A stretch of 64,000 bases of DNA from an uncultured virus (IMG/VR IMGVR_UViG_2675903165_000002) (IMGVR_UViG_2675903165_000002); one strand, 5' to 3'. Positions 23,136 to 43,855 are shown, counted from the stretch's first letter. Numbers and translations are program-made. The notes: generated from the sequence alone by a model not told the origin.

Positions 23136-24242
23136 ATGAAACCATCTATTGTGCATGAATTATATTTTAAACTTAATTGCTTGCGTTCATTTCACGGAGC
23201 AAGTCAGGAGTTTAGTAAAAAGTTAGGGCTACGAATACAAGATAAAGCTTTTGCCAAAGGCTGGTTTACGCACCTACTTAATGATAAAAGTTTTTTTGAG
23301 GGTCATCGTTCTATTTATCTTCCAGAAGCACTGAGTTTGGCTGATGAACTCTTGGCCAAATACAGAAAAAAGACAGAAGATGAGGCGATTATATCGTTTA
23401 AAGTTAGCGACTTACAGGAGACAATCACGCATTTAGACCAAGAGTTTGAGAAAGGCAATGTAGATTATTCTCTTTGGTATTACGATATGCTCACGCAAAA
23501 AATACGCAGCCCTCAGGTTTTGGCTCGTAACCCAGAAGTATATAGAAATCTGCATTTTAGCATTGCTAAATGTCTGATGCAACGCGGCGAAGCGTACCGT
23601 GACTTTAAGCCACTCGAAAGTATTAATTATGTGTTAGAAATCAATCAGTATTTACCGCCCAATCCACTTCTTTATATGCGAATGCTGAATTTGAAAGGCC
23701 ATATTCATCGACAACATTCGCCTATTAAAATAGCGATTGATTATTATGATACACTTTCTAAAGAAGCCAATTTTTTTTCTTTGGGAACACAAAAGTCTTA
23801 TTGGAATGCGTTACTTGAGCATCAATTAGCGATTACATTAGCTCATAATAAATCATATTTAAAGCAAAAAGACATATCACTCAAAGCGTTGGAATTATTA
23901 TCAAAAAGTAATCAATATTTTGATGACAATACAGATGAAAAATGGTCTTTATTTACCAGAATTAGAGAAGCAGAAATTCAATTATTGGTAGGAAATAAAG
24001 ATAAAGGAGGCGCATTTTTGGATATGTTGGAGCATCGGCCAGATTTATTGATGAGGCTTCCTTTATCGCACCAATCTATTTATTTGAGAGCAAATACTCT
24101 TCGTTATGCCGTAACTGAAAATAAAGAAAATGCACTTAAATATTTATCTTCTGTACAGGAATTTAATCAAAAACATCAGTATTTGGGACAGTTAAATTTG
24201 ATAGAAAAATATAAAAATGAACTTTTAAACCAATTAAAATAA
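23136..24242 (+). CDS. Hypothetical helical-repeat (TPR-like) protein
   Basis: 368-aa open frame with a helical pattern; divergent from the DUF4407-like gene. Confidence 0.6.
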   Translation: MKPSIVHELYFKLNCLRSFHGASQEFSKKLGLRIQDKAFAKGWFTHLLNDKSFFEGHRSIYLPEALSLADELLAKYRKKTEDEAIISFKVSDLQETITHLDQEFEKGNVDYSLWYYDMLTQKIRSPQVLARNPEVYRNLHFSIAKCLMQRGEAYRDFKPLESINYVLEINQYLPPNPLLYMRMLNLKGHIHRQHSPIKIAIDYYDTLSKEANFFSLGTQKSYWNALLEHQLAITLAHNKSYLKQKDISLKALELLSKSNQYFDDNTDEKWSLFTRIREAEIQLLVGNKDKGGAFLDMLEHRPDLLMRLPLSHQSIYLRANTLRYAVTENKENALKYLSSVQEFNQKHQYLGQLNLIEKYKNELLNQLK

Positions 24243-24309
24243 GGTCTTTACTCAGAAAAAAAAGGAAAATAACTACACCCAGTGTATTTACTTCCTAAAT
24301 AAGAGAAAA

Positions 24310-25170
24310 ATGTTAAACTGGTTTAAAAGAAAAACACCAATTAGTTACTATGGCTGAAAGCAGCAAATGGCGAATAAAATAGCCAAAGCAATCCCTGCTC
24401 ATCAACTTTATTGTGAACCCTTTTTTGGGGGTTGAGCCGTGTACTTTGCAAAGGAACCTTCAGAAATAGAGGTAATTGGGGATAAAAATGAAGTAGTGGC
24501 GAACTTCTACCAAGTGGCACAAGACGAGGATTTGTTTCCTTTGTTGCAACAGTTGGTTGTTGCCACGCCCTATGCCCGTCGCGAATGGGCAATTGCTCGC
24601 AACGTTTGGCGCAATGCCGATTGCTTTTCAGAGCTAAAGAAAGCATGGGCGTTTTGGGTTTTGAGTGCCACGTGTTTTAGTTCAAGCATTGGTAGTGGCT
24701 TTGCTTTTGACAGAAATCATAATACAGTCGCCAAACGTTTCAATAACAAAAAGAAAAACTTTGGGTCGCGAATCAAGGAACGTTTGGCGAAAACTTGTAT
24801 TGAAAACATAGGAGCTTTGGATTTGATAGCCGCCCGCGACACAGAAAATGCCTTCTTTTATATCGACCCGCCTTATATATCTGAGCGTATGGGCAGCAAA
24901 TCAGGCAAAAATAAAGTTGACCAAGGCCATTATTCTGGCTACACGGTACAGGATTATGACGATTTACTGACGCTATTGGGTGGGCTGAAAGGCAAATTTA
25001 TTCTGTCCAATTACCCTTCAGATTTGCTGGATAAACACGTGCAGGCCAACGGACGAAAAGTGCGAAGCGAAACCAAGGCATTACAAGCAGGCTCTAAGGT
25101 AAAAGGCAAAGTATCGAGCTTGAAAACGGAGGTATTGGTGGCCAATTTTGATTTAGTTGTAGAAGTATAA
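24310..25170 (+). CDS. DNA adenine methyltransferase (Dam/D12 class), intact if TGA=Gly
   Basis: From ATG 24310: PISYYG[TGA]KQ and EPFFGG[TGA]AVYF restore the YxGGK and FxGGG SAM-binding motifs; DPPY catalytic motif. Confidence 0.85.
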
Positions 25171-25339: not shown

Positions 25340-25362
25340 CTTTATCTTTTTTTCTGATTTTC

Positions 25363-27033
25363 ATGGTTAATGTAGTAATTTATTGTCGTGTTTCCTCTGA
25401 CCTTCAGGTACAAAATGGGGCTTGATTGGACGGCCAAGAAATAGCATGTCGTCAATTTGCACAAGCCAAAGGCTGGACGGTCATGCAGGTATTTAAGGAA
25501 GAAGGGGTTTCGGGTTGAATCCTTGAAAGGCCAGCATTATTGAATTTATACCAGTTTGTGTCTTCGTATAATGCCAAAAATCCGACCAAAATCATGTATT
25601 TTTTATGTGATGACATAGACCGTATTGCGCGTGATATAGTGGTTCACATGCAAATCAAACAAGAATTGGAGAGGTTGGGCTTGTCTTTTGTTACCGTAAA
25701 AATGACGTTTGAGAACACGGCTACGGGTAGGTTTTCGGAAGGGATTATGGCCTTACAAGCGGAATTTTTCCGCAGGCAAAACGCCGAGAGAGTTTTTTCG
25801 CGCCAACACGCCCGTTTGATGGACGGTTATTGGCCATGGTTTCCGCCATTGGGTTATCAGCAAGTCAAATCGGCTCACGGCTGAAAAATCTTGTTACCCA
25901 AAGAACCCGAAGCAAGTTTGTTAAAAGAGGGTTTAGAGGCTTATGCTTCGGGCAAAATAATATCTGTTAGAGAATTAAGAGACTTTTGGAATAAAAAGGG
26001 TTTGCGTTCTCAGACAGGCGAATCGAAGGGCTCGGCCAAAGGAATGAGCGTGAGTAATGTGGGTCGTATATTGAATCAGTTGGTATATGCGGGCTATATA
26101 GCATATCAAAAAACGACGAAAGATGCCAATGGAGCAATGCTTTGGCATTGGAATGTTCCGTTTCGTAAAGGGAAGCATGAAGGGCTTATTTCGCTGGAAA
26201 CGTATAATATTATTCAAGAGAAATTAAATAATAAAAAGCCCGTGATGGGGAATTTTTCCAGTCTTTATGATGAGCATTTTCCGTTAAAATGAATGTTAGC
26301 CGATGAGGAAGGGAATTTATTGTTTGCGGGTTGGAGCAAGGGTAGAAATCAATCTTATCCTTATTATAGGTTTAGTAGTGGCTCAGCCTATAAGGGCAAA
26401 TCCATTAGAGCGGAGAAGGTACACAAACGATTAGAGTTGTATTTTAGAGGTATTACACTCAGCCCCAAAGACAAGGAAGCCTTTAAAAAACTGCTGATAG
26501 AACACGTAAATGGACTAAAGAGCCAAGTGCATCAGAGAGATACAAGCCGTGAATTGAAGATTCAAGAGCTTGAAAAAGAATACAATAGCTTAATGGATAA
26601 GATTATTCATTATAGCAACCCGACGCTTATTCAAAAAATAGAATCGCAGTTGTCGAGTTTGGAACTGACGATACGTGGCTTAAAAGAAAGTAATGTGACT
26701 GCCTCAACCGATAAACGATTGGAGGAGGAGGTTTTGGAGGCAACGGTCAGGTTGATATTGAGTCCACGACAGGCGTGGGAACAGGCTAATCACCTTCAAA
26801 AGAAGAAATTTATTGAAATGTGGTTCAAAGAGCCGTTAAAAGTGAGCCCTGTAAAAAATGGTGTTTTGAACCGCCCACAAAGTGCTTTGCGAGAGGCGTT
26901 TCAGGTGTTTGATAATAGGAAAAATAGTCATTTGGAGATGACGGATACAGATTTGAACCACTTTTGAACGGTATTATACAGCGAAATACTGGCATGGTCG
27001 CAGTATAAGGAATGGGGTGGGGTTTCTGTGTAA
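25363..27033 (+). CDS. Large serine recombinase, intact if TGA=Gly
   Basis: YCRVSS catalytic motif, DRIAR, PPLGY, GKHE.LIS; five in-frame TGA (25423, 25516, 25882, 26290, 26965), e.g. EGVSG*, FPLK*ML; single frame to TAA at 27031. Confidence 0.85.
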
Positions 27034-27176
27034 AGGAGGTATAAAATTTAACACTGCCTAATCTATGACTCATTGCTATAAAATACTGCCTTAGTTTATA
27101 CTAAAAAATCAATTGAATTTTTGCAACTAAACATTATATGTGATTTGAGGATATTTATTCTTTTCTCACCTGTTTG

Positions 27177-28193
27177 ATGTATAAATCTTTTGCAAAAAAC
27201 TCAAAGGGATTGCTTTTATTTATTGCTATTTTGGTTATAGCTGGGTGTTCTTATCAGAAATCTAGTATCACTGATGTAGAAACAACTACAAAAAAAGAGA
27301 TTGTCTTAGGAGATATTGGTTGGGCTGGTCTTGCTCCTCTTTATGTCGCAAAAGAAAAAGGTCTATTTTGACCAAGTATTAGTGTTAAAATTGTAAAAAT
27401 AGGTGGTATAGGTGACGCAAGGTTAGCTATGAAAGCCTGAAATATTGATATATACCAATGAACATATGATATGTATTTAAATACTGATGGTCAAGAAGCT
27501 CCTGGTATTGGTTTTATGCTCGGAGACGAGTCAAATGGAGCAGATGGATTATTGGTTAAAAATGGAGTCAAATCTTTGGCTGATTTAAGTGGTAAAACTA
27601 TTGCCTTAGAAAAAGAAACACCGGCATACATTCTCCTCAAATACGCTGCAAAACAAAATAATATTGATTTCAAAACACTTAAAATTAAGTATATGCCAGC
27701 CGCAGATGCAGCCACTGCCTTTATTGCAGGTCAGGTTGATGCTGCTTGAACATATGAGCCATATATTACTAATTCACTCAATATAATATCAGGCGCAAAA
27801 TTACTATATAGTTCAAAAGATTTTCCTGGTCTATTTCCTGCAATCTACTTTGCAAAAAGTGAACTTTTCTCTGGGACAAATACTAATTATCTAAAAGATT
27901 TCCTTCAATGATGGGTAGCGTCACTAGATTATATAAATAATAACCCTACTGAGTCATATGAAATTATGTCAAAAGCTTTTGAGATGCCTACTGGCGATAT
28001 GCTGGACTTAAAAAAGGTCATTATATGGCATACTCTATCTGACAATAAAGACATGTTCAATAAAAACTATACTAGTAATGTATGGACTATGTACAATACT
28101 GTTGCAGATCTTATGAAAACAAATGGAGACAGCATTGCACCTAACAAATCTGTTGATGCATTGACTAATTCTATCTTAGATATGATTCCTTAG
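27177..28193 (+). CDS. NitT/TauT-type ABC substrate-binding lipoprotein, intact if TGA=Gly
   Basis: Lipobox IAGC; W.G.APLYVAKEKGLF, DESNGADG, VDAA*TYEP; five in-frame TGA; ends TAG. Confidence 0.85.
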
Positions 28194-28217
28194 ATTAATA
28201 ATTATTCTTGTATATTT

Positions 28218-28985
28218 ATGATTATATCCTACATTTGTATAAAATATGAAAAAACACTAATGCCGTTAATAAGTATTGGCTTTGCTATACTTTTGTGGCT
28301 TGTTTTAGGAATGAGTGGTGAGCACTCATTCTTTTTCCCTTCATTTCAAAAGTTGTTTGATACCGCATTGACCATGTTTTGAGAAGGCTGATTTATGGTA
28401 GATGTCATATACTCATTTACTAGGGTTTTTATTGCATTTACTATTTCACTTACTCTTGCCTTTGTTGTTGGAGGTATATTTTATACATTTCCTTATATAC
28501 AAAAACTACTAACCCCTTACATTACATTCATGAGATATATACCAATAGAGGGGATATTACCACTAATTTTACTTTCTTTATGATTAGGAGAAAGTGCAAA
28601 AATTGGGCTACTTATTATAGGTACTTTTTTCCCTCTTTTAGGTACGATCATGAATGGACTTCATCATATTCCTTGAGAATTACAAGACCTTATAACGATT
28701 TTACACTTCTGAAAAACTAAAAGAATACTTATGTACTTCCGTTATATTTTACCGCAAGTATATGATAATGTTCGCGTACTCATAGGTCTGTGTCGATGAT
28801 ATGTTGTTTTAGCTGAAATGATCGCAGCAGAGCATGGTATTGGTTATAATATACGAATGGCTCAAAAGTATGCAAATATCCCAAAAGTGTATATTTCTAT
28901 TTTGACTATTTGAACTCTTTGATTTCTGGTAGACTATTTGATGAAACTATCGAGAAAACATATATTCCCTTACCTGTATAAGTAA
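28218..28985 (+). CDS. NitT/TauT-type ABC permease, intact if TGA=Gly and CGA=Trp
   Basis: RYIP, L*LGE.AKI, RVLIGLC[CGA][TGA]YVVLAEM...GIGY; eight in-frame TGA; ends TAA 1 nt before the next ATG; start could be 28260. Confidence 0.85.
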
Positions 28986-28986
28986 C

Positions 28987-29715
28987 ATGGCAAACTATAA
29001 AATAGTTGTAGAAGGCGTAAGTAAGCACTTCAAAAACACCAAGGTCTTTTCGGACATATCTTTTAACATTAAAAAGGGGGAAATATTTTGTATTCTTGGT
29101 CGTAGTGGTTGCGGTAAGACAACCTTATTAAGAATGTTTTCAGGACTAGATACAAACTATCACGGAGATATACTCATTAATTGATTGAATCCAAAAACCT
29201 ATCTCAAAGAAAACAATATTGGATTTATTACTCAAAAATATAGCAATTTCCCGCGAATGACTGTTTCTGAAAATATTATTCAAGGCACGCATTCAATAGA
29301 TAAAGATAAACTAGACGCACTACTAACACACTTTGATATGTATAACCAAAAAGATAAATATCCTGACCAACTGTCATGAGGAATGAACCAAAAGGTAGCA
29401 ATTATGAGAGCAATTATGCAAAATGCTGACATTATTTGTGCAGATGAACCATTTTGATCTCTTGATTTTGTTAATAGAACCAATGCTCAGCGTTACTTTC
29501 GTAACATCATCCATGAAAACCATAAAACTTCTATTGTCGTGACACACGATATAGACGAAGCATTAACAATTGCAGATACTATTTGTGTTATGTCTCATAA
29601 AGGAATGTCTATTATCTCTAACCCACTAGCCTGATACGATATATCCTGAGAAATAAGCGACGATAATACTCATATGCTACTTGCTAGTAAGATGGAGATT
29701 ATCAAAATGTTCTAA
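28987..29715 (+). CDS. ABC ATP-binding protein, intact if TGA=Gly and CGA=Trp
   Basis: GRSGCGKT; FP[CGA]MTV; signature LS[TGA]GMNQK; DEPF[TGA]SLD; VTHDIDEA; ends TAA. Confidence 0.9.
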
Positions 29716-29722
29716 CTCAATA

Positions 29723-29769
29723 TTTTCTCACAAAAAAATCTCTCATTTCGAGAGTTTTTTGTAAGAAAA
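29723..29769. terminator. Hairpin after the recoded ABC operon
   Basis: ttttctcacaaaaaaatctc...gagttttttgtaagaaaa inverted repeat. Confidence 0.6.
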
Positions 29770-30387: not shown

Positions 30388-30765
30388 TTAATTGCTATTT
30401 GCATTTTCTTCGAAAACAGCTTTCTTAATAGCTGCGAATTTATCTTGTACACAATCATCAATAAGTATTTCAAAAACTTCTTTGAACTTGCCTGGATGAT
30501 TTGAAAATTCTTTATTTTTAAATTTTGAATAAAATGCTTCAACTGTCTGACTATGATATAACAAATAATCATTCTCTTCATCGATTTCAAACTCAGGATT
30601 TTTAAAATCAAGATGAATATATACCTGATCGTTAAGTATCTGTTGGATTGGCTGATCTATAGAAATATTCAGTAGGTCGGCAACCCTTCTTTTTGCATTT
30701 CCTTCTCCTCTGCCAAAACAGACACCTGCTGAATCTCTGTTTGTTGAAATAAATATTTTACTCAT
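30388..30765 (-). CDS. Hypothetical protein
   Basis: ATG overlaps the TGA stop of the kinase-like gene (ATGA). Confidence 0.6.
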   Translation of the reverse strand: MSKIFISTNRDSAGVCFGRGEGNAKRRVADLLNISIDQPIQQILNDQVYIHLDFKNPEFEIDEENDYLLYHSQTVEAFYSKFKNKEFSNHPGKFKEVFEILIDDCVQDKFAAIKKAVFEENANSN

Positions 30766-33700
30766 ACCTTATTTGGTTTACGTGATGACATAATAATTTG
30801 ATGTAAATAATATTTGCTTCTGAAATCTATAACTGAAGCAAGTAAAGGTGAAAGATTTACAAAATGAATATTAGGTGGGAGATTCTTTATCTTTCCTCTA
30901 CCTGATGTTACAATTATATTTGACAATGACGAATAATGATTTAGCCATTTGTGAACAGCAGTTTCTTTATTTTGCGCCTTATTAAAAAAGCGTTCAATAA
31001 TACTGTAATGAATAACCAAATAATTTTCCATTGATAGAAAGGGTATTATAAAATTTTCTATTTCCTTCTTTACTATATCCATATTATTTGCCCCCAGATC
31101 AATTGTCTTTTCAGGAACAAAAATTCTGCTATGATGATAATATTCGGCAAAACTATGCCCTTCATAAAATAAATTATTTGCAGCATACTGAACCCTTTCA
31201 TCAAGAATAATTATATTTGTCTTAGCAGCTTCTGTGATTGAGAAATAAAGTTCAGGATAAAGCAACTTATCATTTATCTCATCCTTAATACATGATTGAT
31301 ACTTAGTTAAGGGTGACGTTGATGTACCCGCGGTAAATTTAAAAAATGATGGTAATTTTTGCTGACCGTTACTCGATAGGGCTTCAATGTAGTTATTGTT
31401 ACATTTGTCGTTAAACCATTTTTCAAAGAATTTTTTTTGGCATTCTGACAATGTATTTTTACCGTGATTTAAAATATGTATTTCCTGACTTTCGGAGTTT
31501 TCAGGAACTGCTGTACTTATACATAAATCATAGCAGTTCACTTGTTTGGCCCACTGTTCCCAAAAAAGTTTCATTACATTTTCTGCACTTGAGGGAAAAC
31601 CTTCTAAGGATTTAATTTCCATTATTCGCTTTGGAAGTAGTGTCTTATATTTTGCTACTTTTATTGCGGTATCGTTAATATCAATTACTGTTTCGGTTTC
31701 GTTTATCAAGTTTTTTGTGTTATCATCTTCATACACCAAAAATTGGTGATTGAATACTTTACCTTTTTTTATTTCCTTTTGAAAATCTTCAAAAGATAGC
31801 TGTTGAAAGCCATTATTCTCAAACTCAGACGAAAGCTGATAATCGCCGATTAAAAGTACCTCAGTGGGTTTAAGTACAAAAAAACGATACCCTAAATAAA
31901 ATCTTTCTGCTTCATTTTCCTGTTGTGTTTTGGCTTTAATCTTGAGAGCTTTTAGAATATTAAAATTGTCTTTGCTGTTAAATATATTTTCATTGTACTC
32001 TATATTATAATCATCATCTTCTAAATTAGAAACATCTAAATGTCTTAAATAGCAAGCAGATGCCTCCATTTCAATTAAACCTAAACTGGAGGAGCGAAGC
32101 GTATTGTCATCCTTTTTTAAAATGCTGTCATTAAGCTTTTTATTTTGATTATAAACTAAATAGTCTATAGTAGATATTTGAGCTTGGTTGTCGGTTTGGG
32201 TTTTATCATAGTACTCATCTTTCTCTTCTTTTGAAAGTTTATCTGCACTGCCTGATACAACAACATTATCATAAATATTTACTTCATAAAGCAAATTAGC
32301 TTGATGAAGTAAATGTTCTTTGAATCCATTTGTGTTTATAGGTTTTAACTCAATGGTAAATATTATGCTATTATTGTTTGGGTTATCAACGTTTATTTTA
32401 TCGCTATGCTTAGCAGTATTACGAATGACGTTCTCTATGATATTATAAAATGCTTGACAACCCAAAATATCATTGGGCATTGCTACAACTGGGTCTATTT
32501 CAAATTCGTTTTCACTCCTCTTTATTCGAGAATCAATATTAATTGAATAATGAAAATCTGATAAACCAGAAATGTTTTCTAAAAGTAATCGTACATCATC
32601 TAAATCTGATAGCACTTCCGAATGCAATCGTTTATTTACACGCATTGCAGGAATACCAAAGGTAATATCAGATAGATAGTCCATTCGACATTTGATGTAG
32701 TTGTTAAATTTAGAAAGCTGGTCTAATATATTTTCATTTTTTAGCACTTTATTAGTATAAATGCTGTCATAACTTTTAAAGTCTTCCAATCTTAATTGAG
32801 AAATATCTCCTGTTAGTTTATTTAGTACATGGCTTCCAATATTGTGACTTGAGTTACGAGCCATCACTTGGGAAATAGCGGCTTTTGTAGAAGGAATAAT
32901 AAGCTCTTTCTTAAGAACATTCTTTAGGTAATCCTCTTGAATAATTTTCTCTGCAAATATCTTTACAATTTCTTTTGTTAGTTGAAATCCATCAGCAGAA
33001 TCATTATCTTCATCAAACACACCATCTTGAAGTAATAAGTAGCGAGTTTTAATATACAAAACCAACAATAAAGGAGAATAGATTTCCAATTCAACGCCGT
33101 TCACACATGAGGTTTTTAGGATAGGTTTATTTTTTTCGGTATATAGTGGAAACACAAAAAGATCATGAAAGATAACTTCTTGATTTTCGCTGTCGAAAAT
33201 TAAAAGTGAAGCTTCTATATCGAATCTCGATATATGCTTTAATATTTTAAATTTCTCTTCTTTCAAATTAAAAGAACCATCAATACTCTCTTGAATAAAT
33301 TCATTAATCAAACCATCAACTATTCCTTCAAAGAGTTTATATGTCTGCTCCTTCCATTTATCATTCTTAACATTTTCATTTACTATGGAGTATATCTTAG
33401 TTCTTTGTTCTATTTCACATGCTTTATTCCAGTTTTCTAAAGGAATATGCAATTTTTCATGTAATTTATTTTGGCCAATTTTTTGTTCAATACTCAAGGC
33501 AAATTTTATCAAATAAGTAAAAACGAGATGTTCTTTATCTTTTTTATAATAACTACTTAAACTCGTCTTATTTAAATAACAATAGGCAAATTGATAGAAT
33601 ATAATTTCGTCAAATAATACAACATAATAGTCCGTTTTTTCCCTGATTTGACAGGGAATAAAGCAGTTGAGGCATTTATCTGAAATTAGTTCAGTTGTTT

Positions 33701-34136
33701 CATTTCCTTTTCGTTGAATAGGCAGATGTTGGTATAATTTGGGTGCTTCTTTTATTGATTTAAATTTTGCCTGAGAATTAGTAAACAATTTCGACACCAG
33801 ATTGGTATATGTATTACTACCTTTATCACTACAGTAGAAATATGGAATATAAGGTGCTTGAAATTCATTAGTCCTATCGTTGTGTAATACATTAGGAATA
33901 TCTAAGAAATATTTCATTTCCTGACTGTATGGATCATACTCAGAAAAATATCCATATATTACACCCAAATCTTTTAAAGTGTTTTCAAACAAAATTTGCC
34001 ATTTTGTTTTGCCATTTTCATCACGATTTTGATCAGCCCAAATTTCAACTATTTGAAGTTCTTTACAAACACCTAAAAAGATGTTTGTAAACTTTAATTT
34101 AAGATCATTGCTTGCTTTTTGTACATCGTTGCACAT
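30762..34136 (-). CDS. Large GHKL/histidine-kinase-like protein with C-terminal receiver-like region
   Basis: H-box-like ARNSSHNIGSHVL, N-box FYNIIENVIRNTAKH, IYDN, LGL.EM; C-terminal IIILDERVQ...IIVTSGRG. Confidence 0.65.
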   Translation of the reverse strand: MCNDVQKASNDLKLKFTNIFLGVCKELQIVEIWADQNRDENGKTKWQILFENTLKDLGVIYGYFSEYDPYSQEMKYFLDIPNVLHNDRTNEFQAPYIPYFYCSDKGSNTYTNLVSKLFTNSQAKFKSIKEAPKLYQHLPIQRKGNETTELISDKCLNCFIPCQIREKTDYYVVLFDEIIFYQFAYCYLNKTSLSSYYKKDKEHLVFTYLIKFALSIEQKIGQNKLHEKLHIPLENWNKACEIEQRTKIYSIVNENVKNDKWKEQTYKLFEGIVDGLINEFIQESIDGSFNLKEEKFKILKHISRFDIEASLLIFDSENQEVIFHDLFVFPLYTEKNKPILKTSCVNGVELEIYSPLLLVLYIKTRYLLLQDGVFDEDNDSADGFQLTKEIVKIFAEKIIQEDYLKNVLKKELIIPSTKAAISQVMARNSSHNIGSHVLNKLTGDISQLRLEDFKSYDSIYTNKVLKNENILDQLSKFNNYIKCRMDYLSDITFGIPAMRVNKRLHSEVLSDLDDVRLLLENISGLSDFHYSINIDSRIKRSENEFEIDPVVAMPNDILGCQAFYNIIENVIRNTAKHSDKINVDNPNNNSIIFTIELKPINTNGFKEHLLHQANLLYEVNIYDNVVVSGSADKLSKEEKDEYYDKTQTDNQAQISTIDYLVYNQNKKLNDSILKKDDNTLRSSSLGLIEMEASACYLRHLDVSNLEDDDYNIEYNENIFNSKDNFNILKALKIKAKTQQENEAERFYLGYRFFVLKPTEVLLIGDYQLSSEFENNGFQQLSFEDFQKEIKKGKVFNHQFLVYEDDNTKNLINETETVIDINDTAIKVAKYKTLLPKRIMEIKSLEGFPSSAENVMKLFWEQWAKQVNCYDLCISTAVPENSESQEIHILNHGKNTLSECQKKFFEKWFNDKCNNNYIEALSSNGQQKLPSFFKFTAGTSTSPLTKYQSCIKDEINDKLLYPELYFSITEAAKTNIIILDERVQYAANNLFYEGHSFAEYYHHSRIFVPEKTIDLGANNMDIVKKEIENFIIPFLSMENYLVIHYSIIERFFNKAQNKETAVHKWLNHYSSLSNIIVTSGRGKIKNLPPNIHFVNLSPLLASVIDFRSKYYLHQIIMSSRKPNKV

Positions 34137-34867
34137 TATAATATAGACATCATTTGATTATAAACTTCTTTGAATAATAAGGAGCTTGTAAAGCTATCAT
34201 CTCTATCGGAGCTATTGGCTAGATTAGTAACATTTATTTGTTTTGATATAACAGTTGGTGGTGGGGAGAAAGCAATTATTCTATCTGATAAAACAATTGT
34301 TTCTTCATAATCATGGCTAATAAAAATAGCTGTTACTTCGTTTTTTTTTATATAGTTACGCAACTTCAAAAGCAATTTATGTCGTATTGTCTTTTCAATC
34401 CCTACCATTGCTTCATCAAAGCAAAGTATGTCTGATTTTATTGCCAATCCTCTTGCTAAAGCAGTTCGTCTGGACATACCGCCAGAAAGCATACTTGGTA
34501 ACTTTTGAGAGTGATTTGACATATTAACCAACTCTAATACCTCAGCTGATGAAAGTGAGGTATTAGCAGTATTTTTTGACCAAATTTCAATATTTTCTTT
34601 TACTGAAAGCCAAGGTAGTAGGTCATTATCTTGTGGTACATAAGAAATTGGTGATTTAAATTCTGCGGCTTCTACCCCTCCAATAGTAACACTGCCACTT
34701 TTTGGAGTATTAATTCCTAAAACCAGTTTCATTATAGAACTTTTTCCACAACCCGAAGGCCCGAAAAAAGTAACTATCTCACCCTTGTTTATTGACAAGT
34801 TGAATGATTCAACTATTACATTGTTGCCAAATGCAAGGTCAATATCATTAAACTTTATTTGTTCCAT
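34136..34867 (-). CDS. ABC transporter ATP-binding protein (NitT/TauT), standard code
   Basis: GPSGCGKS, LLPWLSV.EN, LSGGMSRR, FDEA, ISHD. Confidence 0.9.
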   Translation of the reverse strand: MEQIKFNDIDLAFGNNVIVESFNLSINKGEIVTFFGPSGCGKSSIMKLVLGINTPKSGSVTIGGVEAAEFKSPISYVPQDNDLLPWLSVKENIEIWSKNTANTSLSSAEVLELVNMSNHSQKLPSMLSGGMSRRTALARGLAIKSDILCFDEAMVGIEKTIRHKLLLKLRNYIKKNEVTAIFISHDYEETIVLSDRIIAFSPPPTVISKQINVTNLANSSDRDDSFTSSLLFKEVYNQMMSIL

Positions 34868-35604
34868 GGAAATAGTTTTTTTCTCATTAAAACCAATGAC
34901 CTGTCGGTAAGAATACCAATCAAGCCGATTACAATGATGTAAGCAAATATTTTGTCTGTTGCTAAGTATCGCTGTGCTCTAATCATGGCATAGCCAATGC
35001 CGTATTCAGCTCCAACAATTTCAGCTACTATTAAATATGTCCATGCCCAGCCCAAACAAATTCTTGAATTGTCTAAGATGCTTGGGGCACTTCCTTTAGC
35101 AATTACATTCTCAATGTATTTTAGCTTCGACCATTTTAATGCAAAATTGAAAGATGAATATTTTTTTTCTATTGCAGTCGCTGAATCGTAAAACATAGGA
35201 ATCATTTGAGCAAATGTTCCTAATACAATAATAATGATTTTACTCATATCCTCAATGCCAAACCACAAAATTATGATTGGGATAAAAACTGGAACTGGCA
35301 GGTAGCGAAAGAACTCAATAAAATAAAAAATAGTATCTTTAAGTTTGTTATTTAACAAAGAAGCAAAAGAAATAGGATAGGCTATTAAAAATGAAATTAA
35401 AAAGCCTACAAAAACTCTATACCAACTGCTTAAAAGATCCTGCCAAAACTCTACTTGCTGCAACATACTCCAAAGAGAAAAAAGAGTATGTTGTGGGCTT
35501 GGCAGAAAGATTGTTTTTACTCCATAAATATTTGAGAAAAAACACCAAACCCCTACTAATATAATTAGCAGGGATAGAGGATAAATTGCGTTAGAAACCT
35601 TCAT
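34855..35604 (-). CDS. ABC transporter permease (NitT/TauT), standard code
   Basis: LPSP, RYLP, WFGI, GWAWTYLIVAE...GIGY. Confidence 0.9.
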   Translation of the reverse strand: MKVSNAIYPLSLLIILVGVWCFFSNIYGVKTIFLPSPQHTLFSLWSMLQQVEFWQDLLSSWYRVFVGFLISFLIAYPISFASLLNNKLKDTIFYFIEFFRYLPVPVFIPIIILWFGIEDMSKIIIIVLGTFAQMIPMFYDSATAIEKKYSSFNFALKWSKLKYIENVIAKGSAPSILDNSRICLGWAWTYLIVAEIVGAEYGIGYAMIRAQRYLATDKIFAYIIVIGLIGILTDRSLVLMRKKLFPWNK

Positions 35605-35605
35605 T

Positions 35606-36592
35606 CTATTTTTGTATGAGGCTGGTATTGACCATGCTTTCCGTATTTAAATCTTTATTAATAAATCCATTCTCTTTCCAGAACACATTAATATTTGAAA
35701 GTAAGTCAAATAAATTATTTGGAGTTGTCTTGTCAATTAGTTTTTTATTCAAATCTTTTGTTTGAATATCTACTACCGAAAGAATATCTCTCACATCTTG
35801 AATCTTCATCCCCATGCCTTCCGAAATTATTTTTTGAGATTCTTCTTTATGAGAATAGTAGTAGTCTGCACTTTTGAACCATGCTCTTAAAAATTTTTCA
35901 TAATGCTCTTTGTTAACCCCCATAACTTTATCTCTGTTGATAATCAAAAGCCCAGGAATAAGAGTTGGATACTTCTTGGTATCGATCAAAACATGTAATC
36001 CTTTTTCTTTTCCAGCTTGTGAAAGCCAAGGCTCGTAAGTTACAGCTGCATCCACTTGTCTTGCGATAATTGCATTACCTGCAATTTGAGGATCTGCAAC
36101 TGGTTTGAAATGCACACTTTTTAAATCAATATTATTTGCTTTCAAAATATATCTTAAAAAGAAATCGCTGGGAGATGCTTCTGCGTAAGCAATTGTTTTC
36201 CCTTTTAACTGTTGTAGGTCAGTTATAGAATCACTTGAAACTAATCCGTCACCTCCATCTGACTCGTCAGTAATTCCAATGACTTGTGCAGGGAAACCAG
36301 TTTCATTATAAATCAATAACTGGTCAAGTGTGCTGGCTACATCCACATCAATCTGCCCTGAAATCAATGATGCTCTTTTGGTATCAAAGTTTTCAATTTT
36401 CTTAATATCAATCTCAACTCCTTCTTCCTTGAAGAAACCCATTTTGTCGCCTATGTAAACCATTCCACCACCAGGCCAAGAATGTACTCCAACTGTAATC
36501 TTGTTGGTTGATGTTTTCTGCATTTTGAAATAAGCAACTGTCCCTCCAATAACCACAAATGCTGCGATTAGAATTACGATATATTTTTTCAT
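35606..36592 (-). CDS. ABC substrate-binding protein (NitT/TauT/SsuA-like), standard code
   Basis: N-terminal anchor; WPG, GFFKEEG, DESDGGDG, VDAAVTYEPW. Confidence 0.9.
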   Translation of the reverse strand: MKKYIVILIAAFVVIGGTVAYFKMQKTSTNKITVGVHSWPGGGMVYIGDKMGFFKEEGVEIDIKKIENFDTKRASLISGQIDVDVASTLDQLLIYNETGFPAQVIGITDESDGGDGLVSSDSITDLQQLKGKTIAYAEASPSDFFLRYILKANNIDLKSVHFKPVADPQIAGNAIIARQVDAAVTYEPWLSQAGKEKGLHVLIDTKKYPTLIPGLLIINRDKVMGVNKEHYEKFLRAWFKSADYYYSHKEESQKIISEGMGMKIQDVRDILSVVDIQTKDLNKKLIDKTTPNNLFDLLSNINVFWKENGFINKDLNTESMVNTSLIQK

Positions 36593-36613
36593 TTTTAATT
36601 ATTTAGATATAAT

Positions 36614-37225
36614 TTAACTGCTTTTGAGAATTGATAAAACCTTTTGTTGCATTTCATTTGAATTATCAAGTTTAAATTTGCTTAATGCTACATGGATGTC
36701 GGTTTTGTTTCCTATTGCCTTTAATCCCAAAATATAAATCCATTTTTTTGAATTGGGAAATTTTTTATCATAAAATCTCTTTTCAGAGAAACTTACAAGG
36801 TTTGCTGAACCCCCTGCGAACTTGGTGTAATCCAATTTCCATTTTTCCCAATTATCAGTTACAAACTCAAATATTTCTTTGTGCATTTTTTCTGTAAGTT
36901 GGCTATTGTTAAGCAATGGCCACATCAAGAAATATCTTCTTTCATAATCATCAGTATTATTCCAAAATGTAATGAGATACTTTTTAATTAATTCAAGGTG
37001 TAGCACTCTATTTACTAAGTTTAGCCCTAAATAGCATAGATTTATGTCCTCAGATTTAATCAAAGAAATAATCACTTCCACATCTGAATCAATTACTTGT
37101 TCTCTCAAATAGTCAACTAATGGAAAGCTATTCATATCATCTAACATTGAATTAGAGAATGAAGATTTATTCCTAACATCATTAAGAATTTTTTCTGCCA
37201 AATAATTTAGAGTATCTGTTTCCAT
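36614..37225 (-). CDS. Hypothetical helical protein
   Basis: 203-aa ORF in the operon with short spacers. Confidence 0.6.
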   Translation of the reverse strand: METDTLNYLAEKILNDVRNKSSFSNSMLDDMNSFPLVDYLREQVIDSDVEVIISLIKSEDINLCYLGLNLVNRVLHLELIKKYLITFWNNTDDYERRYFLMWPLLNNSQLTEKMHKEIFEFVTDNWEKWKLDYTKFAGGSANLVSFSEKRFYDKKFPNSKKWIYILGLKAIGNKTDIHVALSKFKLDNSNEMQQKVLSILKSS

Positions 37226-37231
37226 TTTTAA

Positions 37232-38050
37232 TCAGCTATTTACCATAACATTATCTCTTATTACTATTAAAGAACCATTAGGGTCGGGAACTACATTGAC
37301 TTCAATTTTTTTAGGCTCAATGGTGGTATATTTCCCCCTGTTATTATACCAGCACTTTTGAAATTCGTCCATGAAATCGGGGCCACTTTTGAGATTGCTG
37401 ATTGTTACCCATCTCCACAATTCATTGAAGTCAGTTTCAATGTAAACATTCATTGCGTAATCAAGTAATTCATTGAACTCATTACCTGCTCTTAAAAATG
37501 CAAACTTTGCATAACGAAAAGCTTCAATTTCAAATTGAAGAAAGTCTTCTTTATAATTGCCTCCGAATTTGTTTCTATATTCTGTCAAAATAAAATTCAA
37601 ATCAAGCGGCTTTGGATAATTAAGAAAGTCTGTAATCTTTTTATACTTCTCGTGTTCCATCCTTTGCACTAAATGACCGTAAATGTGTCCGATACTTAAA
37701 TAAATGCTTAGAAAGTCAATATTTCTTGGGTTTACACAGATGTTGTTTCCTTGTAACTCTGCAACAGGAAGGTATCTCCAATTTTGACCTTCGTTACGTT
37801 CCCATTGTTTTTCTTCGTCATACACCCTGTCAGTGAATGTTACATGGATGTTTCGTTCTTTCAAGTAGCTAATCACATTCCGCAACATATCCAATTTGTC
37901 TTCTATGGTAAGCCCTAATTCCTTCTCATATTCAAAAACTGGTGTGAATTTGAGTTCATAGAATTCAGGGATATTAAGTGGATTATATCCGAGCGTACTG
38001 TTTTTCTCTATTAAGTCATATGTTAAACATAAATAATTTTTCATTATCAT
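37232..38050 (-). CDS. Hypothetical protein with zincin-like HxxxH...E motif
   Basis: SIGHIYGHLVQ and downstream FEIEA; first gene of the operon. Confidence 0.55.
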   Translation of the reverse strand: MIMKNYLCLTYDLIEKNSTLGYNPLNIPEFYELKFTPVFEYEKELGLTIEDKLDMLRNVISYLKERNIHVTFTDRVYDEEKQWERNEGQNWRYLPVAELQGNNICVNPRNIDFLSIYLSIGHIYGHLVQRMEHEKYKKITDFLNYPKPLDLNFILTEYRNKFGGNYKEDFLQFEIEAFRYAKFAFLRAGNEFNELLDYAMNVYIETDFNELWRWVTISNLKSGPDFMDEFQKCWYNNRGKYTTIEPKKIEVNVVPDPNGSLIVIRDNVMVNS

Positions 38051-38169
38051 TTAATTTATTAGTTTGAATTTGTTACTATATAATTAAGGAATAGGAACAT
38101 CTATAAAATTAGTGAAAGTTGCTTTAATGCAAAATAATAGTGATAGTAAAACGGCCTACGGCCTATCCC

Positions 38170-38672
38170 AATCCAGCTAAAGCTGGGGGCTTTTACTCCG
38201 CCATTGGCGGAATTTTTCATCGTTCTTCTATACATTCTTTCATTAACTTCTCACACAGTACAGATGAAGTATCATCTTACTCGCTTTCAAGACAACTATT
38301 TTCGATAAAACTTTTTGATGTATTACTTATGTTCTTCCATATCTCAGGGTTTCTTTGAAGTAGCTCATTTTATTTTTGTACCACATCAGGAAAATGTCAT
38401 GGTTGTAACAGAATGGATATATATACATGATATCTTTCCATTCAAATTCTTATCACCTTCACAAATATCCTTGATCATTTCTTCAAGCAACGGTTCTAAT
38501 TTCTTATGTATCCATCTCTTTCTGTACTTCGTCACCCGAACCAAATGATATCTACAATCATATACTGTATCTCATCAACTTCTAATAGTATGGCATTACG
38601 CTTCTTTTACAGACTTGATCCTTCTCATATTAAGGACTAAGTCTTTCTTGTCCAGCTGAAGCTGGGGGCACC
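38170..38672 (-). mobile_element. tnpA: Degenerate IS200/IS605-family element (tnpA remnant) in the recoded code
   Basis: Minus strand reads VYDCRYHLV[CGG]VTKYRK, KIK[TGA]ATS and R[TGA]YFICTV[TGA]EVNE, with frameshifts/deletions; flanked by two ccagct(a/g)aagctgg hairpins at 38173 and 38652. Confidence 0.75.
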
Positions 38673-38959: not shown

Positions 38960-39620
38960 AACTAATACCAGCATGTGCCCTCTTTAAAAATTATAAAAAT
39001 GTCTAAACTGCTGCAATATTTTTCGTGCCTGCCGCAAATAATTCATTTCAAACCACTGAAAAACAATACTTTCCATGACGGGATGATAGGCTTCAATATA
39101 CAGATGCTGTGGCGTAGGTTTGATAAATTCTTGTTTGGCTTGCTTCTGGCGGAAATACTTTTATACTCCATGTAGAACTAAATTGGCTGACATTGGAACT
39201 TTTGACATAAATCTTTTTTTGAAAAAGTACTTGTAACACCAAGAATCACGACCTCTTTACTTAGTGTTACAAGTACAATATTGACCAAATTTTATTTTAA
39301 ATTTATATTCAGTCCTGTCAAGAACTGCATTCTCGCTGATTAGTAATATATTTTATTTAAAAACCCTGATAGTAAAAGGGAACTCAGGTTTAGAAAATCA
39401 AGTCTTTAGCCCAAGTACAGGGGCACGCTTGAAACTAATTGCGTACTCGCTTCGGATTATTTCACTCTGTTCTCCTAATTTATAAACCGAGTGCTTGCCC
39501 ATTTTAAAACCTAATTCATCCAGAAGATAAATATATGATTTATAGTAATCATAGTCCAAAAAGTGCTTGGCAAACAAGACTTGTAATTTATCGAGCAAAT
39601 CTTGAACTGTTTTTGGCCAC
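38960..39620 (-). pseudogene. IS3-family transposase remnants
   Basis: Fragments FLDYDYYK...MGKHSVYKL (HTH-like) and QEFIKPTP...IEAYH...FYN (integrase-core C-terminus-like). Confidence 0.45.
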
Positions 39621-39776
39621 TATTGCAGTCAGAACTACTCACATGGCCGCGGCATAAGGAATGTAAGAATATTTTTGTATGAATTATTTAGCTTCTTTCT
39701 TTTATATCACTACCCGCACCTACCTCAGAGAAATCCCCAACCTATCTTATTGGACAAATTGGGGAGGATATGTTGT

Positions 39777-40088
39777 TTAGTATTCTTCTGGTGTGAGGAT
39801 AGTAAAATGGTGATATTCTAAGTTGCCCATTAACTTATTTTCCTGTAAACAACTGCGAGGTGTAGCATCTATCACCCATATTTTTTGCTGACTTTCGGGC
39901 TGATAAAATACCTGCAAATAATCTATACCACCTTGCGCTTTGGCCAAGTCTTGCAACTCTGCTATGATGCTTTGTAGTGCTTGTGGATTGAGTAATGCTT
40001 GTGCTCAAGGAGTGACAAAGGGTGTGCCATCAAAGAAGAAATCGCCAGTGGCTAATTCAGGTGTTTTTCTGGTTCGTGTGTTGTTCAT
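39777..40088 (-). CDS. Small mobile-element protein ending TILTPEEY, intact if TGA=Gly (absent from the ORF track)
   Basis: MNNT[CGA]TRK...FVTP[TGA]AQALL...GIDYLQVF...KIWVID...FTILTPEEY-TAA, 103 aa. Confidence 0.7.
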
Positions 40089-40757: not shown

Positions 40758-41666
40758 TTACGTTCCATAGAGCCTTAGTAACTCATTTGTCCAGTGGGTG
40801 AAGTTCTCCAACATTTTGGTATTGAAAATAAGCGGCTTTGGGCTGTGTTGTGGTGTGGCAAATGTTCCAAACTTTTCTACCCAATAAGCATAGTTGGCCA
40901 GTTGTTCAGCGGAAGCGGCACAAGGGAACAAAAAGAAAATATCCTTGTCTTGTGCTAAAGCCTTATTCTTGGGATTTTGCAAAATGTCAGTGAGCCTTTC
41001 CATCGAAATACGGTTTCGTTTATAGAGTGTTTGGGCTCGTTGCACCCGTTCACTGACCGATAATTTTGCCTTTAAAATCATACGGACATAGGCACGTGCT
41101 GCCTCACTTTCTCCTCATAATTCATGGTCAGGCGCAGGTTCTGCATGGGGCATTTTCTCCATGACCATCACTTTTAAAATATCTTTTAATAACTGTTGTT
41201 GTTGGGCTTGGTTGGGGCAATATTGTAGCTCAGGCAGGAAAGATTCCTGCACCTGATAGGCAAAACCTCGTTTGCGTTTTGCTACCATTTCGGGATTATT
41301 TTCCTCTGGCCACTGCTTGGCCAAAAGGGCAAAGGTGTCCTTGGCCTTCGCCGCATTTTGCAACACCTTGTCCAAAGACGGCAAGCCAATATCATAAGTT
41401 TTGGGGCTGCGTTCTCGACCATTTTTGCTACGTTGATAGGGTTCAAATACAACTTTTCCGTCAAGCTGAATCTTGAGCGTAAAATCCGTATCAAAAAACT
41501 TTCCTGTTGCCCAAAGGCTGACTTCTTGGGACATTCGCAAGGTTAGCGGCTCGGTCTCAATCCCTGTATTGGTGGCTATCAAAGGGGCTACGAGAGGTTG
41601 CAAGGCTTTTCGATAAAAGTCTTGTGTAAAATCCTTTATTGCCTGATAAATAGTATATTGTGCCAT
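40758..41666 (-). CDS. Hypothetical protein, one ORF if TGA=Gly
   Basis: Track ORFs 41115-41666 and 40758-41081 share a frame and are separated only by one TGA. Confidence 0.65.
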
Positions 41667-41695: not shown

Positions 41696-43765
41696 TTAAC
41701 TAACAGGGGCAAGAGCATCAAGTTTGGCATCAAGTTCTTGGTCTAAATCCTGTTGTTTTTGAGCCTCATAAAAGGCTTGTACTTTGGGCGGTCGGAAGTA
41801 ATAATCATGCTCCGTAATGGGTACATTGCTGCTAACTTTTTGCAATCGCTCGTGATAATGGGTTACATCTTCGTTTCTAAGAGTCAGTTTTCCGTTCATC
41901 AAATGGCCAGTGGCGAACATTTCCATAAACTCAGTTTGTGCGCCTAATTGGGTGCTTGCCAGCGTTGGTACTTTGTAAGAGTCTGCGGGTCAGGCTACCA
42001 CATCTTGTTTGAAATCGCCCTGCAAACGTGTAAAATACTTGGAAAACAAAGGGTCTTTTACTGCCCTTTTTTTATTCAAATCACTTTCTTTGAGTTGTTT
42101 GAGTTGGTCTTGTGCTTCTGCAATTTTAGTGCGACTCCTGACACTCAAAAGCGGATTGGCAAACACACGCATATAATCAATTGCAGCCCTTTCTTCGGGT
42201 ATACTTCCCGTCAAAACCTGTGGATTTTCGCGGTCTCGGTGTTTGAGTTGATTTCCAAAATCATAATTGGCCGCTACCTTTTCCACTTGAATTTGCTTCT
42301 GAACAAACTCGTTTAACACACTGGCATTAAACGTGGGCAATTGTTGAGTAAGTTCTTGGGTTTTTTGTCGGTATAAGTCTTGATAAAGCGTTTGGGCAAG
42401 TGCGACAATATCTTCGGGTTTAGATAATTCTTTGTTTTTAATCTCTTGCTGAAGGGATTGACTGTATTGTTTATTAAAATCTTTAGATTGTATAATTTGC
42501 TGAAATTCATTGAGTTTGGGGGTGGCATAAGGCAATGGACGATAGCCTGAAGTTAAAGTTCCAGTCAAGTCATCGTATTGTAATAAATCGGGAAACATCG
42601 CTGCTCCATCAGGCTTAAACACTAAAGAACTTTGTATAGAATCGAACTGCAAAGGGATTTCGACTTGTCCGTTTGGGTCTGCCTGAAGATTTTTAAGGAC
42701 AAATGCGCTGCTGTGATTGAGTTGAGCATTATTGCGCATTCCGTCGGCAATGGTACGAACAAACCCCGCCGTTGGCAACACATTGAGTATTTGGTGCATA
42801 CTGCCTTTAATCGCGTCAAGGGTTTCTGGGTCTAACAGTGGTTTTTGGTCTTGGGTTTGGGCTTCTTTTAAAGAATCTAATTGTTGATTAAATGCCTCTT
42901 GATGAGTACTTTGTGTGGGGATATGGGTATTTTGTTGCAAAGCGGCAACCATGGCGGCAGGCTGCTGCAATAGGTCGGTGGCCGATGCGCTGTTGCTGAG
43001 TTTTCTGGCAGTTTCTCTGGCGAGTGCATCGGGCTTTTTCAGTTCAATTTTGGGCAAAGTATAAGCCTGAGCCAACTGATTATAACTTTGCGAAAGGGAG
43101 TGAATACTTTCTCGGTTTTGTGCCATAAAATCAGCCACTTCAGGTTGTTCTTGTTGTGTTTGCAACTGTTGCAACAAATAAGAGGCTTTGAGTATAAGCA
43201 TTTGTTTGTCAGGACTATCTTTGAATGTTTCCGTGATTTGTGGGAATTGGGTTTGCGCTGTTGTGAGGTCAAAATCAGCTAAAAGATTAGCCATCATTGG
43301 CTGACTTGATAATTGGTTCAGTTGGTCGGCTATTTCTGCCAAAGCAGCATCTCTAAGGGCAAGATTTTCTGCGTTTTGTGCTTTATTTTGTGCGTCTTGC
43401 CTGTCATTTTCACTGATTACCTGTTTTTCTGCGGATATTTCATTTTGATTGTTTATTTCTCTTTTGTCATTTTCATATTGCAAGAGCAAGGAACTTTTAA
43501 TAGCTGCCCCCAAATCGGATTGTGCATCAGGCAAAGGGCTTGGTAAAAAATGGGCAGCAATAACGGCTTGTAAGGTTTTGAACATAGCCGTTTGGTTCAA
43601 ATCAGGAATTTTATCCGCGTCTAAAAATTGTAATAATGCTTGCGCTTGTTGTTTTTCGCTGGGGTCTGCAAACTGCTCTTGAAGGTTTTGACTGACCAAA
43701 ATATCAGTCTTTGGCAGATGCTGTTCTAGACTGTCTTGCGGAATAATTCAGGTTTCTAATCCCAT
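41696..43765 (-). CDS. Large Gln-rich helical protein, one ORF if TGA=Gly
   Basis: ATG 43765 MGLET[TGA]IIPQ runs into track ORF 41990-43699, whose TGA reads in frame into 41696-41926; ends TAA. Confidence 0.65.
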
Positions 43766-43826
43766 TACGATATTGGCAGTAAGTGAAACATTATCAGTAT
43801 ATTGACCGCTTGGTAGAATACAAAAT

Positions 43827-43855
43827 AAGGAGATGGCTAACAAGCACATCTCCTT
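43827..43855 (-). terminator. Hairpin downstream of the secreted-protein gene
   Basis: aaggagatg...catctcctt inverted repeat. Confidence 0.5.

Follow-up and report, generated by a model that had tools for sequence, protein, structure and literature searches.

The 64,000-nucleotide stretch analysed here (the window; uncultured virus IMGVR_UViG_2675903165_000002 of IMG/VR) holds a set of genes, hereafter the recoded genes, whose coding sequences use, and have evolved under selection in, a code in which UGA encodes glycine and both CGA and CGG encode tryptophan. The segment that first drew attention to them comprises the 3′ end of a large serine recombinase gene and an SsuABC-like ATP-binding cassette (ABC) operon in this code, both probably of Absconditabacteria-like source. 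An earlier reading of the window (the original prediction) had assigned CGA and CGG to tryptophan on top of UGA=Gly in these genes and had named Absconditabacteria as their donor. The code assignment is confirmed by the analysis below. The word donor, however, undersells the case: the recoded genes constitute a kept module and not a stray fragment.

Tryptophan and glycine codons in the window genes

The sites quoted in the original prediction are all present as claimed, namely FP-CGA-MTV at codon 90 of the ATPase (CGA at 29254), GLC-CGA-TGA-YVVLAE at codons 193-194 of the permease (CGA-TGA at 28794-28799) and YHLV-CGG-VTKYR in a minus-strand IS200/Y1-transposase remnant (CGG codon at 38538-38536), and a standard-code paralogous operon carries LLPWLSV and GWAWTYLIVAE at the aligned places (34136-35604, minus strand). 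Tolerance of arginine at these columns in homologues, which would have spoken for the conventional reading, was not encountered. At the ATPase CGA, all 120 matches listed read H100 W17 F1 S1 N1 (W in 14 of 17 homologues of similar length, hand-picked from the same 120), and at permease CGA 28794 the 31 homologues read W27 L3 I1, with no arginine in either column. The third CGA of the operon (28854) falls at a column of M24 L4 T3 in the same 31 homologues, neither W nor R. In the IS200 remnant, the CGG aligns to the tryptophan of the YHxVW motif in three different solved transposases (2a6m/2vhg, 2fyx and 2f4f), and the first CGA (38304-38302) to the W of FAWQxGY in two Y1 transposases of the host.

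TGA codons of the ABC operon occupy textbook glycines, for example the leading glycine of LSGG and that of DEPFG. The nearest relative of the ATPase, P0035 (52% identity), reads LSWGM, with TGA called W at the first glycine codon of LSGG, so that its source DNA must likewise carry TGA there. Because it contains just three CGA and no CGG, the ABC operon by itself is suggestive and thin, and the weight of the code case comes from the backbone genes of the module and their copies. The strongest single CGA=Trp site is codon 249 of the D12-class methyltransferase (CGA at 25054), where W is found in 109 of 123 homologues; TGA codons of the same gene stand at columns with G109/113 and G77/124. For the recombinase, the column of CGA 26767, which lies within the range of the original prediction, reads W45 Y26 L16 (of 118), that of CGA 26890 reads F73 I23 L10, and at one CGA the commonest residue is R, with 22 of 117.

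A Codetta-like vote was taken over four window genes, using 120 homologues for the ATPase, 31 for the permease, 119 for the recombinase and 124 for the methyltransferase. TGA was voted glycine (+15.8; next best −27; 20 columns), with 11 of the 20 codons at columns topped by G, and CGA was voted tryptophan (+3.9; His −7.0, Arg −10.6; 10 columns), that is, Trp over Arg by 14.5 nats. AGA, AGG, CGT and CGC voted arginine and TGG voted tryptophan. Three of the 10 CGA codons fall at columns with W on top, which make up 20 of the 1277 columns (binomial P=4e-4), compared to none of the 48 AGA, AGG, CGT and CGC codons (Fisher p=0.004 vs CGA). The frames of the methyltransferase, recombinase, binding protein, permease and ATPase are open under translation table 25, and none contains an in-frame TAA or TAG.

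Codon exchange between diverged copies

The decisive test of the code is the comparison between diverged copies of the same genes. The methyltransferase codon alignment consists of six copies, three from the genome that carries the window (G000) and three from a relative of the same family and another genus (G003). In this alignment, TGG, CGA and CGG replace one another at columns with tryptophan in 61-90% of homologues: one column reads TGG TGG TGG CGG CGG TGG (homologues W102/124), a second TGG CGG CGG CGA TGG TGG (W76 F24 Y20, of 124) and a third CGA in five copies and TGG in the sixth (W109/121), the first two together placing CGG in four copies. The same exchange is seen at two less strict columns, TGG in three copies and CGA in three (homologues Y57 L29 F9 W7), and TGG in five and CGA in one (Y42 H42 F21).

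Similar results were obtained for the other backbone genes. Between copies within G000, TGA stands opposite GGN at 10 columns. Over the copies of the recombinase and of two backbone genes named hyp717 and hyp302, CGA or CGG is paired with TGG at 11 columns. Column 717 of hyp717 reads CGA CGG CGA TGG over four copies, and its column 552 shows CGA/TGG relative to the copy on contig C8; hyp302 and its C8 copy differ by CGA/TGG at one column and by CGA/AGA at a second. The TGA at one column of a further backbone gene, hyp103, is retained in all three copies. The recombinase copies of the relative carry CGG or CGA at columns with W99/119 and W106/118. In the backbone genes of the relative, TGG is found at 36 and CGA plus CGG at 111 per 10,000 codons (raw counts 14 and 43, respectively); the former figure would be a low tryptophan content unless CGA and CGG contribute to it, which supports the reassignment. 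Homologue columns, vote and exchanges between copies thus agree on CGA/CGG=Trp and TGA=Gly. As the original prediction had argued, a UGA suppressor alone would not suffice to read these genes, as conserved tryptophan sites would still receive arginine.

Standard-code genes of the same element

Two codes alternate along the window, and the genes next to the recoded ones show the opposite behaviour. The seven-ORF (open reading frame) block between the ABC operon and the IS200 remnant has no in-frame TGA in 2544 codons vs 104 GGN; two of its seven genes end at TGA, and its tryptophan columns carry TGG. The paralogous operon in this block, 29-32% identical to the recoded one, has TGG at both tryptophan sites, and the CGA codons of its ATPase stand at columns with R120/120 and R118/120, in line with the contrast drawn in the original prediction. 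Likewise, copies of the type IV coupling protein (T4CP) gene in G000 and G003 have CGA/CGG opposite AGG, CGT and CGC at all-arginine columns, and CGA and CGG of ArdC stand opposite CGT and AGA at arginine columns in the ArdC of the relative. hyp368, the left neighbour of the methyltransferase, contains no TGA, and its copies differ by CGA/CGC, CGG/CGC and CGA/AAA. The blocks expected from the original prediction were recovered, with 24.3-29.7 and 38.1-43.9 kb recoded and 30.4-38.05 kb together with T4CP and ArdC in the standard code.

As a separate observation, two ORFs of 272 and 203 amino acids at 36614-38050 (minus strand) lie in one frame with a single TGA and two codons between them, and form one protein of 478 amino acids under table 25, within an otherwise standard-code block.

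A conserved module within an integrated element

Contig C10 of G000 is 71 kb long, and its first 64 kb constitute the window. G000 has 4.25 Mb in 48 contigs with a GC content of 0.424 and is densely coding under table 11 except for a few ORF deserts. Those with recoded genes are confined to C10 (26968-30206 and 38051-41114) and C30 (5875-7593); under table 25, the first of them and its left side contain five intact plus-strand genes. G000 contains some three diverged copies of the element, and G003 another three. Further copies in G000 comprise the methyltransferase on C38 and C9 (92% amino acid identity), recombinase pieces on C42, C30 and C8, and hyp103, hyp302, hyp717 and hyp139 on C8 and C30.

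Similarity to the other copies extends to the left of the recoded part (HTH_17, DUF4407, hyp368) and to its right (HTH_3, coupling protein, ArdC, tyrosine integrase), and in the G003 copies the standard-code T4CP gene sits between recombinase and hyp717. The similarity on both sides and this T4CP placement indicate that the recoded genes are a conserved module of a larger element. A simple nested insertion reaching from methyltransferase to hyp139 was considered and dropped on the same two observations. The module consists of the D12 methyltransferase, the large serine recombinase and three to four backbone hyp genes, with a slot for variable cargo, and lies within an integrated element that also bears standard-code T4CP, ArdC and tyrosine integrase genes.

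The cargo slot is delimited by external data sets. X1 covers the whole window and may be the source data itself, while X2 (a leaf-litter RNA library, which as such is no proof of transcription) and X3 (a wastewater metagenome) are independent runs whose contigs match the backbone at about 97-98% identity. X2 covers 23000-27037 and 39710-42999, and X3 covers 24223-27033 and 39710-42999, one X3 contig differing upstream of 24223. Contigs of both diverge exactly at 27033/27037, carry other sequence and rejoin at 39710; read jointly with these loose ends, the absence of any X2 or X3 cover over 27038-39709 marks the cargo region. The final 42 bases of the recombinase gene recur at 95-97.5% at C30 651-690, C30 2665-2706 and C8 10395-10436, at the cargo borders of other copies, and a degenerate copy of the recombinase 3′ end on the right side (39575-39663) is 79-84% alike to C30 583-671, C8 10415-10502 and C30 2620-2686. 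Because of the loose ends and these border repeats, we regard the ABC operon, together with the standard-code block and the IS200 remnant, as exchangeable cargo.

Cargo of other copies was observed as well. C30 5878-7959 holds a recoded HpaII-type restriction-modification pair (GC 0.31) with a C5 methyltransferase of 11-12 TGA, 1 CGA and no TGG, and an RE_HpaII endonuclease with 10 TGA. At the contig end beside the hyp103 copy, C30 8437-8941 is a tandem repeat of 21-base units with several open frames (PAIPVIL...). In G003, the element carries as cargo a standard-code DisA-type diadenylate cyclase domain with DACNH/DACNG sensors (locus L027, 13345-14733).

Integrase and transfer genes of the element comprise the serine recombinase, the tyrosine integrase, T4CP and ArdC; no relaxase, type IV secretion system (T4SS) or mating-pore genes were recognised within the window. 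Phage families in the backbone genes were limited to one weak scaffold-like match (E 8e-4), and no structural genes were found in the element, which is not a phage.

Of 401 genomes taken from across the phylum, G000 alone contained hyp717; the gene is also present in G003. A recombinase match with internal TGA occurred in G000 and G003 only, of 41 genomes. Searches of plasmids and phages with hyp717 (tblastn) and of viral contigs with the six-copy methyltransferase alignment gave no match. A metagenome scan with the latter returned 80 loci at 37-45% identity and none closer, with Gly-Gly patterns that miss TGA-coded copies. In a 9.8-Mb genome from another family of the order (G574), a coupling-protein homologue has 4 in-frame TGA; it belongs to a group of neighbouring ORFs that contain 2-6 in-frame TGA apiece (C125 177495-184588), about 10 kb from a tRNA cluster.

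Host and authenticity of the integration

The host genome contains 121 matches to sorting domains of the type IX secretion system (T9SS), which we take to mark Bacteroidota. It uses TGA as stop, and UCA and UCG are absent from the anticodons of its 45 tRNA genes, which include Arg-ACG, Arg-CCG and Trp-CCA. Neither a tRNA nor an Rfam family was found in the element, and no tRNA in the elements of the relative. Because this tRNA set is standard and lacks UCA and UCG, translation in the host should end at the first TGA (codon 16 of the methyltransferase), and we infer that the recoded genes are silent there. In an unrelated part of the genome, Aragorn reports a tRNA-Leu(GAG) with its anticodon at the unusual position 29 (C27 193443-193519), in a 1.8-kb stretch without long ORFs.

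The genome is 99.84% complete with 0.08% contamination, and in both G000 and G003 the contigs that hold recoded genes carry standard-code genes on either side of them. Moreover, an X2 contig, from an independent study, spans 23438-24389 and thus crosses the code change at the hyp368/methyltransferase junction (24242-24310). This contig, the low contamination and the embedding in two genomes argue against a chimera.

Selection on the recoded genes

Between copies, the ratio of non-synonymous to synonymous substitution (dN/dS) was 0.015-0.026 for the methyltransferase, 0.09 for hyp103, 0.16 for hyp717 and 0.18 for hyp302, with synonymous sites near saturation; for the standard-code coupling protein and hyp368 it was 0.13. 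Of 232 differences to X2/X3, 40 were listed, 36 of them coding, and among these 25 are synonymous and 11 non-synonymous; the methyltransferase has 7 synonymous and no non-synonymous changes among the differences listed. The recoded genes are thus under purifying selection, both between copies and relative to the X2/X3 contigs. Decay is seen in parts, in the IS200 remnant and in one G003 copy. Intact frames combined with low dN/dS indicate that the genes have been translated elsewhere under the foreign code, recently and repeatedly. Such a pattern would not be seen in dead genes. Import from a donor, as in the original prediction, is too simple if taken as a one-off event: the module is conserved, exists in several copies and is subject to purifying selection.

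Source of the recoded genes and alternative explanations

Using Codetta, Shulgina & Eddy 2021 predicted the reassignment of CGA and CGG to tryptophan over UGA=Gly for Absconditabacteria, as correctly quoted in the original prediction, and CGG=Trp for some Gracilibacteria (PMC8629427). Because no other group is reported with both changes, attribution to Absconditabacteria, made from the code alone, is the best available reading. No named Absconditabacteria homologue was found in searches that did not include Absconditabacteria genomes. The composition of the recoded cargo is also alike. Its GC is 0.323, CGA occurs at 34 per 10,000 raw codons and CGG not at all, TGA makes up a third of the glycine codons, and AGA accounts for 25 of 38 unambiguous arginine codons, compared to GC 0.26-0.38, CGA below 37 per 10,000 and mainly AGA for arginine in the Absconditabacteria genomes described in PMC8629427, which counts aligned Pfam domains and hence uses a different measure from ours. 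We suggest that the recoded genes are translated elsewhere, most likely in an organism resembling Absconditabacteria or in a pool of elements from it, that the host lineage repeatedly exchanges DNA with that organism or pool, and that the low-GC recoded cargo derives from such a genome.

Several observations weigh against this reading. On the side of the code, CGA stands opposite unambiguous arginine codons at 6 columns of recoded genes, and 5 of the 10 voted CGA codons fall at columns, variable or polar, where neither tryptophan nor arginine fits well. On the side of the source, the backbone has GC 0.44 with CGA at 64-89 and CGG at 15-46 per 10,000, unlike the genomes published in PMC8629427, and its CGA/CGG frequency equals or exceeds that of TGG. 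No gene tree or named homologue ties any recoded gene to Absconditabacteria: the best recombinase matches are 35% identical, the sole named match from the candidate phyla radiation (CPR) being a Peregrinibacteria recombinase (35%), and no permease homologue exceeds 30% identity (best-scoring 27%). Pattern scans of a species-genome collection with the binding protein and the recombinase, which did not cover Absconditabacteria genomes, returned no relative. Finally, the silence of the genes in the host is read from its tRNA set.

A more far-reaching version, which we consider possible though not the likelier course, is that the element is bilingual by design and moves back and forth from the Bacteroidota host to a partner resembling Absconditabacteria, for instance an epibiont that takes up DNA of the host or mates with it. 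T4CP, ArdC and the tyrosine integrase would then retain the standard code so as to work on the Bacteroidota side, while the methyltransferase, the serine recombinase, hyp103, hyp302, hyp717 and some cargo would act as an establishment module expressed only in the partner; both gene sets would be selected, each being read in one of the two cells. Should this be the case, such elements would reveal host-partner pairs in a group with few known hosts.

Rather unlikely is an origin in a different lineage or element pool with the same code, for instance unsampled Gracilibacteria or a lineage of mobile elements with codon preferences of its own. It would accommodate the CGG=Trp predicted in some Gracilibacteria, the backbone GC and the CGA plus CGG frequency at or above that of TGG, which fit no genome described in PMC8629427, and the Peregrinibacteria match. 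However, CGA=Trp together with UGA=Gly is reported in PMC8629427 for Absconditabacteria only, and the low-GC, CGG-free and AGA-rich cargo fits that group.

We disfavour as improbable a single dead import, that is, Absconditabacteria DNA that landed by chance and is non-functional and decaying. The host does lack the needed tRNAs, the IS200 remnant has frameshifts and TAA/TAG stops (its PF01797 match contains 6 TGA, 1 TAG and 1 TAA, with the translated frames shifted), and one G003 copy has a split T4CP gene and a shortened hyp717 homologue containing TAA. Against this stand about three plus three copies at synonymous saturation whose foreign-code frames are nevertheless open with dN/dS of 0.015-0.18, the purely synonymous methyltransferase differences to contigs 97-98% identical, and a synteny with standard-code genes that is kept in both genera.

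That CGA and CGG still encode arginine, with matches to tryptophan columns owing to chance or decay, is close to refuted: the small number of CGA in the ABC operon, the five voted codons at columns favouring neither residue and the CGA/AGA pair in hyp302 are outweighed by the enrichment at W-top columns over all other arginine codons, the margin of the vote, the exchange of TGG, CGA and CGG at W-conserved columns over six copies and the opposite behaviour of the standard-code neighbours. An assembly chimera or contamination joining DNA of another organism to host contigs is hardly credible, as the standard-code flanks in two genomes, the low contamination, the restriction of recoded-type ORF deserts to C10 and C30 and the X2 contig across the junction speak against it, even though contamination by UGA-recoding Absconditabacteria contigs is on record (PMC8629427) and the best DNA match, X1, may be the source data itself.

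Relation to known systems and implications

Phages with recoded stop codons reportedly read TAG as Gln or TGA as Trp and bring suppressor tRNAs. Such phages of standard-code hosts likewise have some genes in another code (10.1101/2021.08.26.457843); the present element differs in combining TGA=Gly with a sense-codon change, and no tRNA was found on it. The phages described by Liu et al. 2023, which link code-25 CPR bacteria with standard-code ones, are likewise mobile DNA meeting both codes, and five putative Gracilibacteria phages among those reported matched Bacteroidetes spacers (PMC10746230). Most of these phages, as described there, avoid in-frame TGA and so read alike in either code, in contrast to the element, which holds foreign-code-only beside standard-code-only genes and in which no phage structural genes were found. 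With integrative mobilizable and conjugative elements it shares a recombinase at one end, a coupling protein, ArdC and cargo bounded by recombinase-3′-end repeats; it differs from them in having no relaxase or mating-pore genes recognised in the window and a recombinase that cannot be made in the host. Relative to the Absconditabacteria code of PMC8629427, the same two reassignments and a similar cargo composition are here found within a standard-code Bacteroidota genome without tRNA(UCG) or tRNA(UCA), and with a backbone of GC 0.44 in which CGA/CGG are at least as frequent as TGG. A literature search, which did not extend to supplements, found no description of modules in a foreign code within integrated elements of Bacteroidota.

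Differing genetic codes are commonly taken as a wall to gene exchange, and here DNA traffic crosses a code boundary that involves sense codons, with foreign-code genes in good repair in several copies, two genera and two further environmental data sets. The results also provide independent evidence for CGA/CGG=Trp, until now a prediction only, with TGG, CGA and CGG acting as synonyms. They hint at a hidden partner organism able to read the block, and foreign-code modules in host genomes may serve as a search key for the partners of Absconditabacteria-like organisms. Annotation pipelines will mark such regions as gene-poor or rich in pseudogenes unless codes are tested region by region.

Feature coordinates and neighbouring genes

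Table 1. Features of the recoded module and its standard-code neighbours (window coordinates).
Feature	Position	Strand	Remarks
hyp368, standard-code left neighbour	23136..24242	+	kept beside the methyltransferase copy on C38
D12-class N6-adenine DNA methyltransferase, recoded	24310..25170	+	PF02086, E 1e-20; 2 TGA, 3 CGA, 5 TGG
Large serine recombinase, recoded	25363..27033	+	Pfam Resolvase and Recombinase; 5 TGA, 4 CGA from that start
Final 42 bases of the recombinase gene	26992..27033	+	left border of variable cargo region; recurs at cargo borders of other copies
SsuA/NMT1-family substrate-binding lipoprotein, recoded	27177..28193	+	Pfam NMT1; 5 TGA, no CGA/CGG
ABC permease, recoded	28260..28985	+	Pfam BPD_transp_1; 8 TGA; CGA 28794 and 28854
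ABC ATPase, recoded	28987..29715	+	Pfam ABC_tran; 5 TGA; CGA 29254; no TGG
Standard-code cargo block, seven ORFs	30388..38050	-	includes paralogous binding-protein/permease/ATPase operon, 34136-36592
Decayed IS200/Y1-transposase remnant, recoded	38101..38604	-	PF01797; CGG 38538-38536; CGA 38304-38302 and 38283-38281
Degenerate recombinase 3′-end copy	39575..39663	+	right side of cargo region
hyp103, recoded backbone gene	39777..40088	-	copies on C30 (83% aa) and C8 (79%)
hyp302, recoded backbone gene	40758..41666	-	C8 copy 59% aa
hyp717, recoded backbone gene	41696..43849	-	C8 copy 69% aa; 5 CGA, 0 TGG
T4CP, standard code	44862..46574	+	Pfam TrwB_AAD_bind

The Pfam matches of the recoded operon are above cut-offs and identify a NitT/TauT (SsuABC-like) ABC importer. 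Its binding protein scores 103 bits against NCBIfam SsuA_fam, under the 163.5-bit cut-off, and shares 32% identity with its standard-code counterpart (35606-36592). Against solved structures, the C-terminal part of the IS200 remnant, which is too short for this purpose, gave chance matches only. For hyp103, no family was found in Pfam, NCBIfam or PHROGs, and NCBIfam and PHROGs gave no function for hyp302, hyp717, hyp368 or a protein of 1124 amino acids.

Outside the module, the left end of the window (1-6747) is a phage-like block (DUF6712, CHAP, DUF6549) with a diverged second copy on C4 (33-96% amino acid identity). It is followed at 7370-20648 by a standard-code cluster of the DNA phosphorothioation type, with DUF4007, PAPS-reductase-like, DndB and class-V aminotransferase genes, a SNF2/ResIII helicase, an AAA/SMC ATPase and a weak dnd-associated match. 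On the right side of the element, 50844-58645 contains standard-code defence-like genes, namely a PLD-SNF2 helicase, a YhcG nuclease and an Eco57I/MmeI-like type IIG enzyme, followed further on by an IS4/5 transposase, a small resolvase and a tyrosine integrase of Bacteroidota type.

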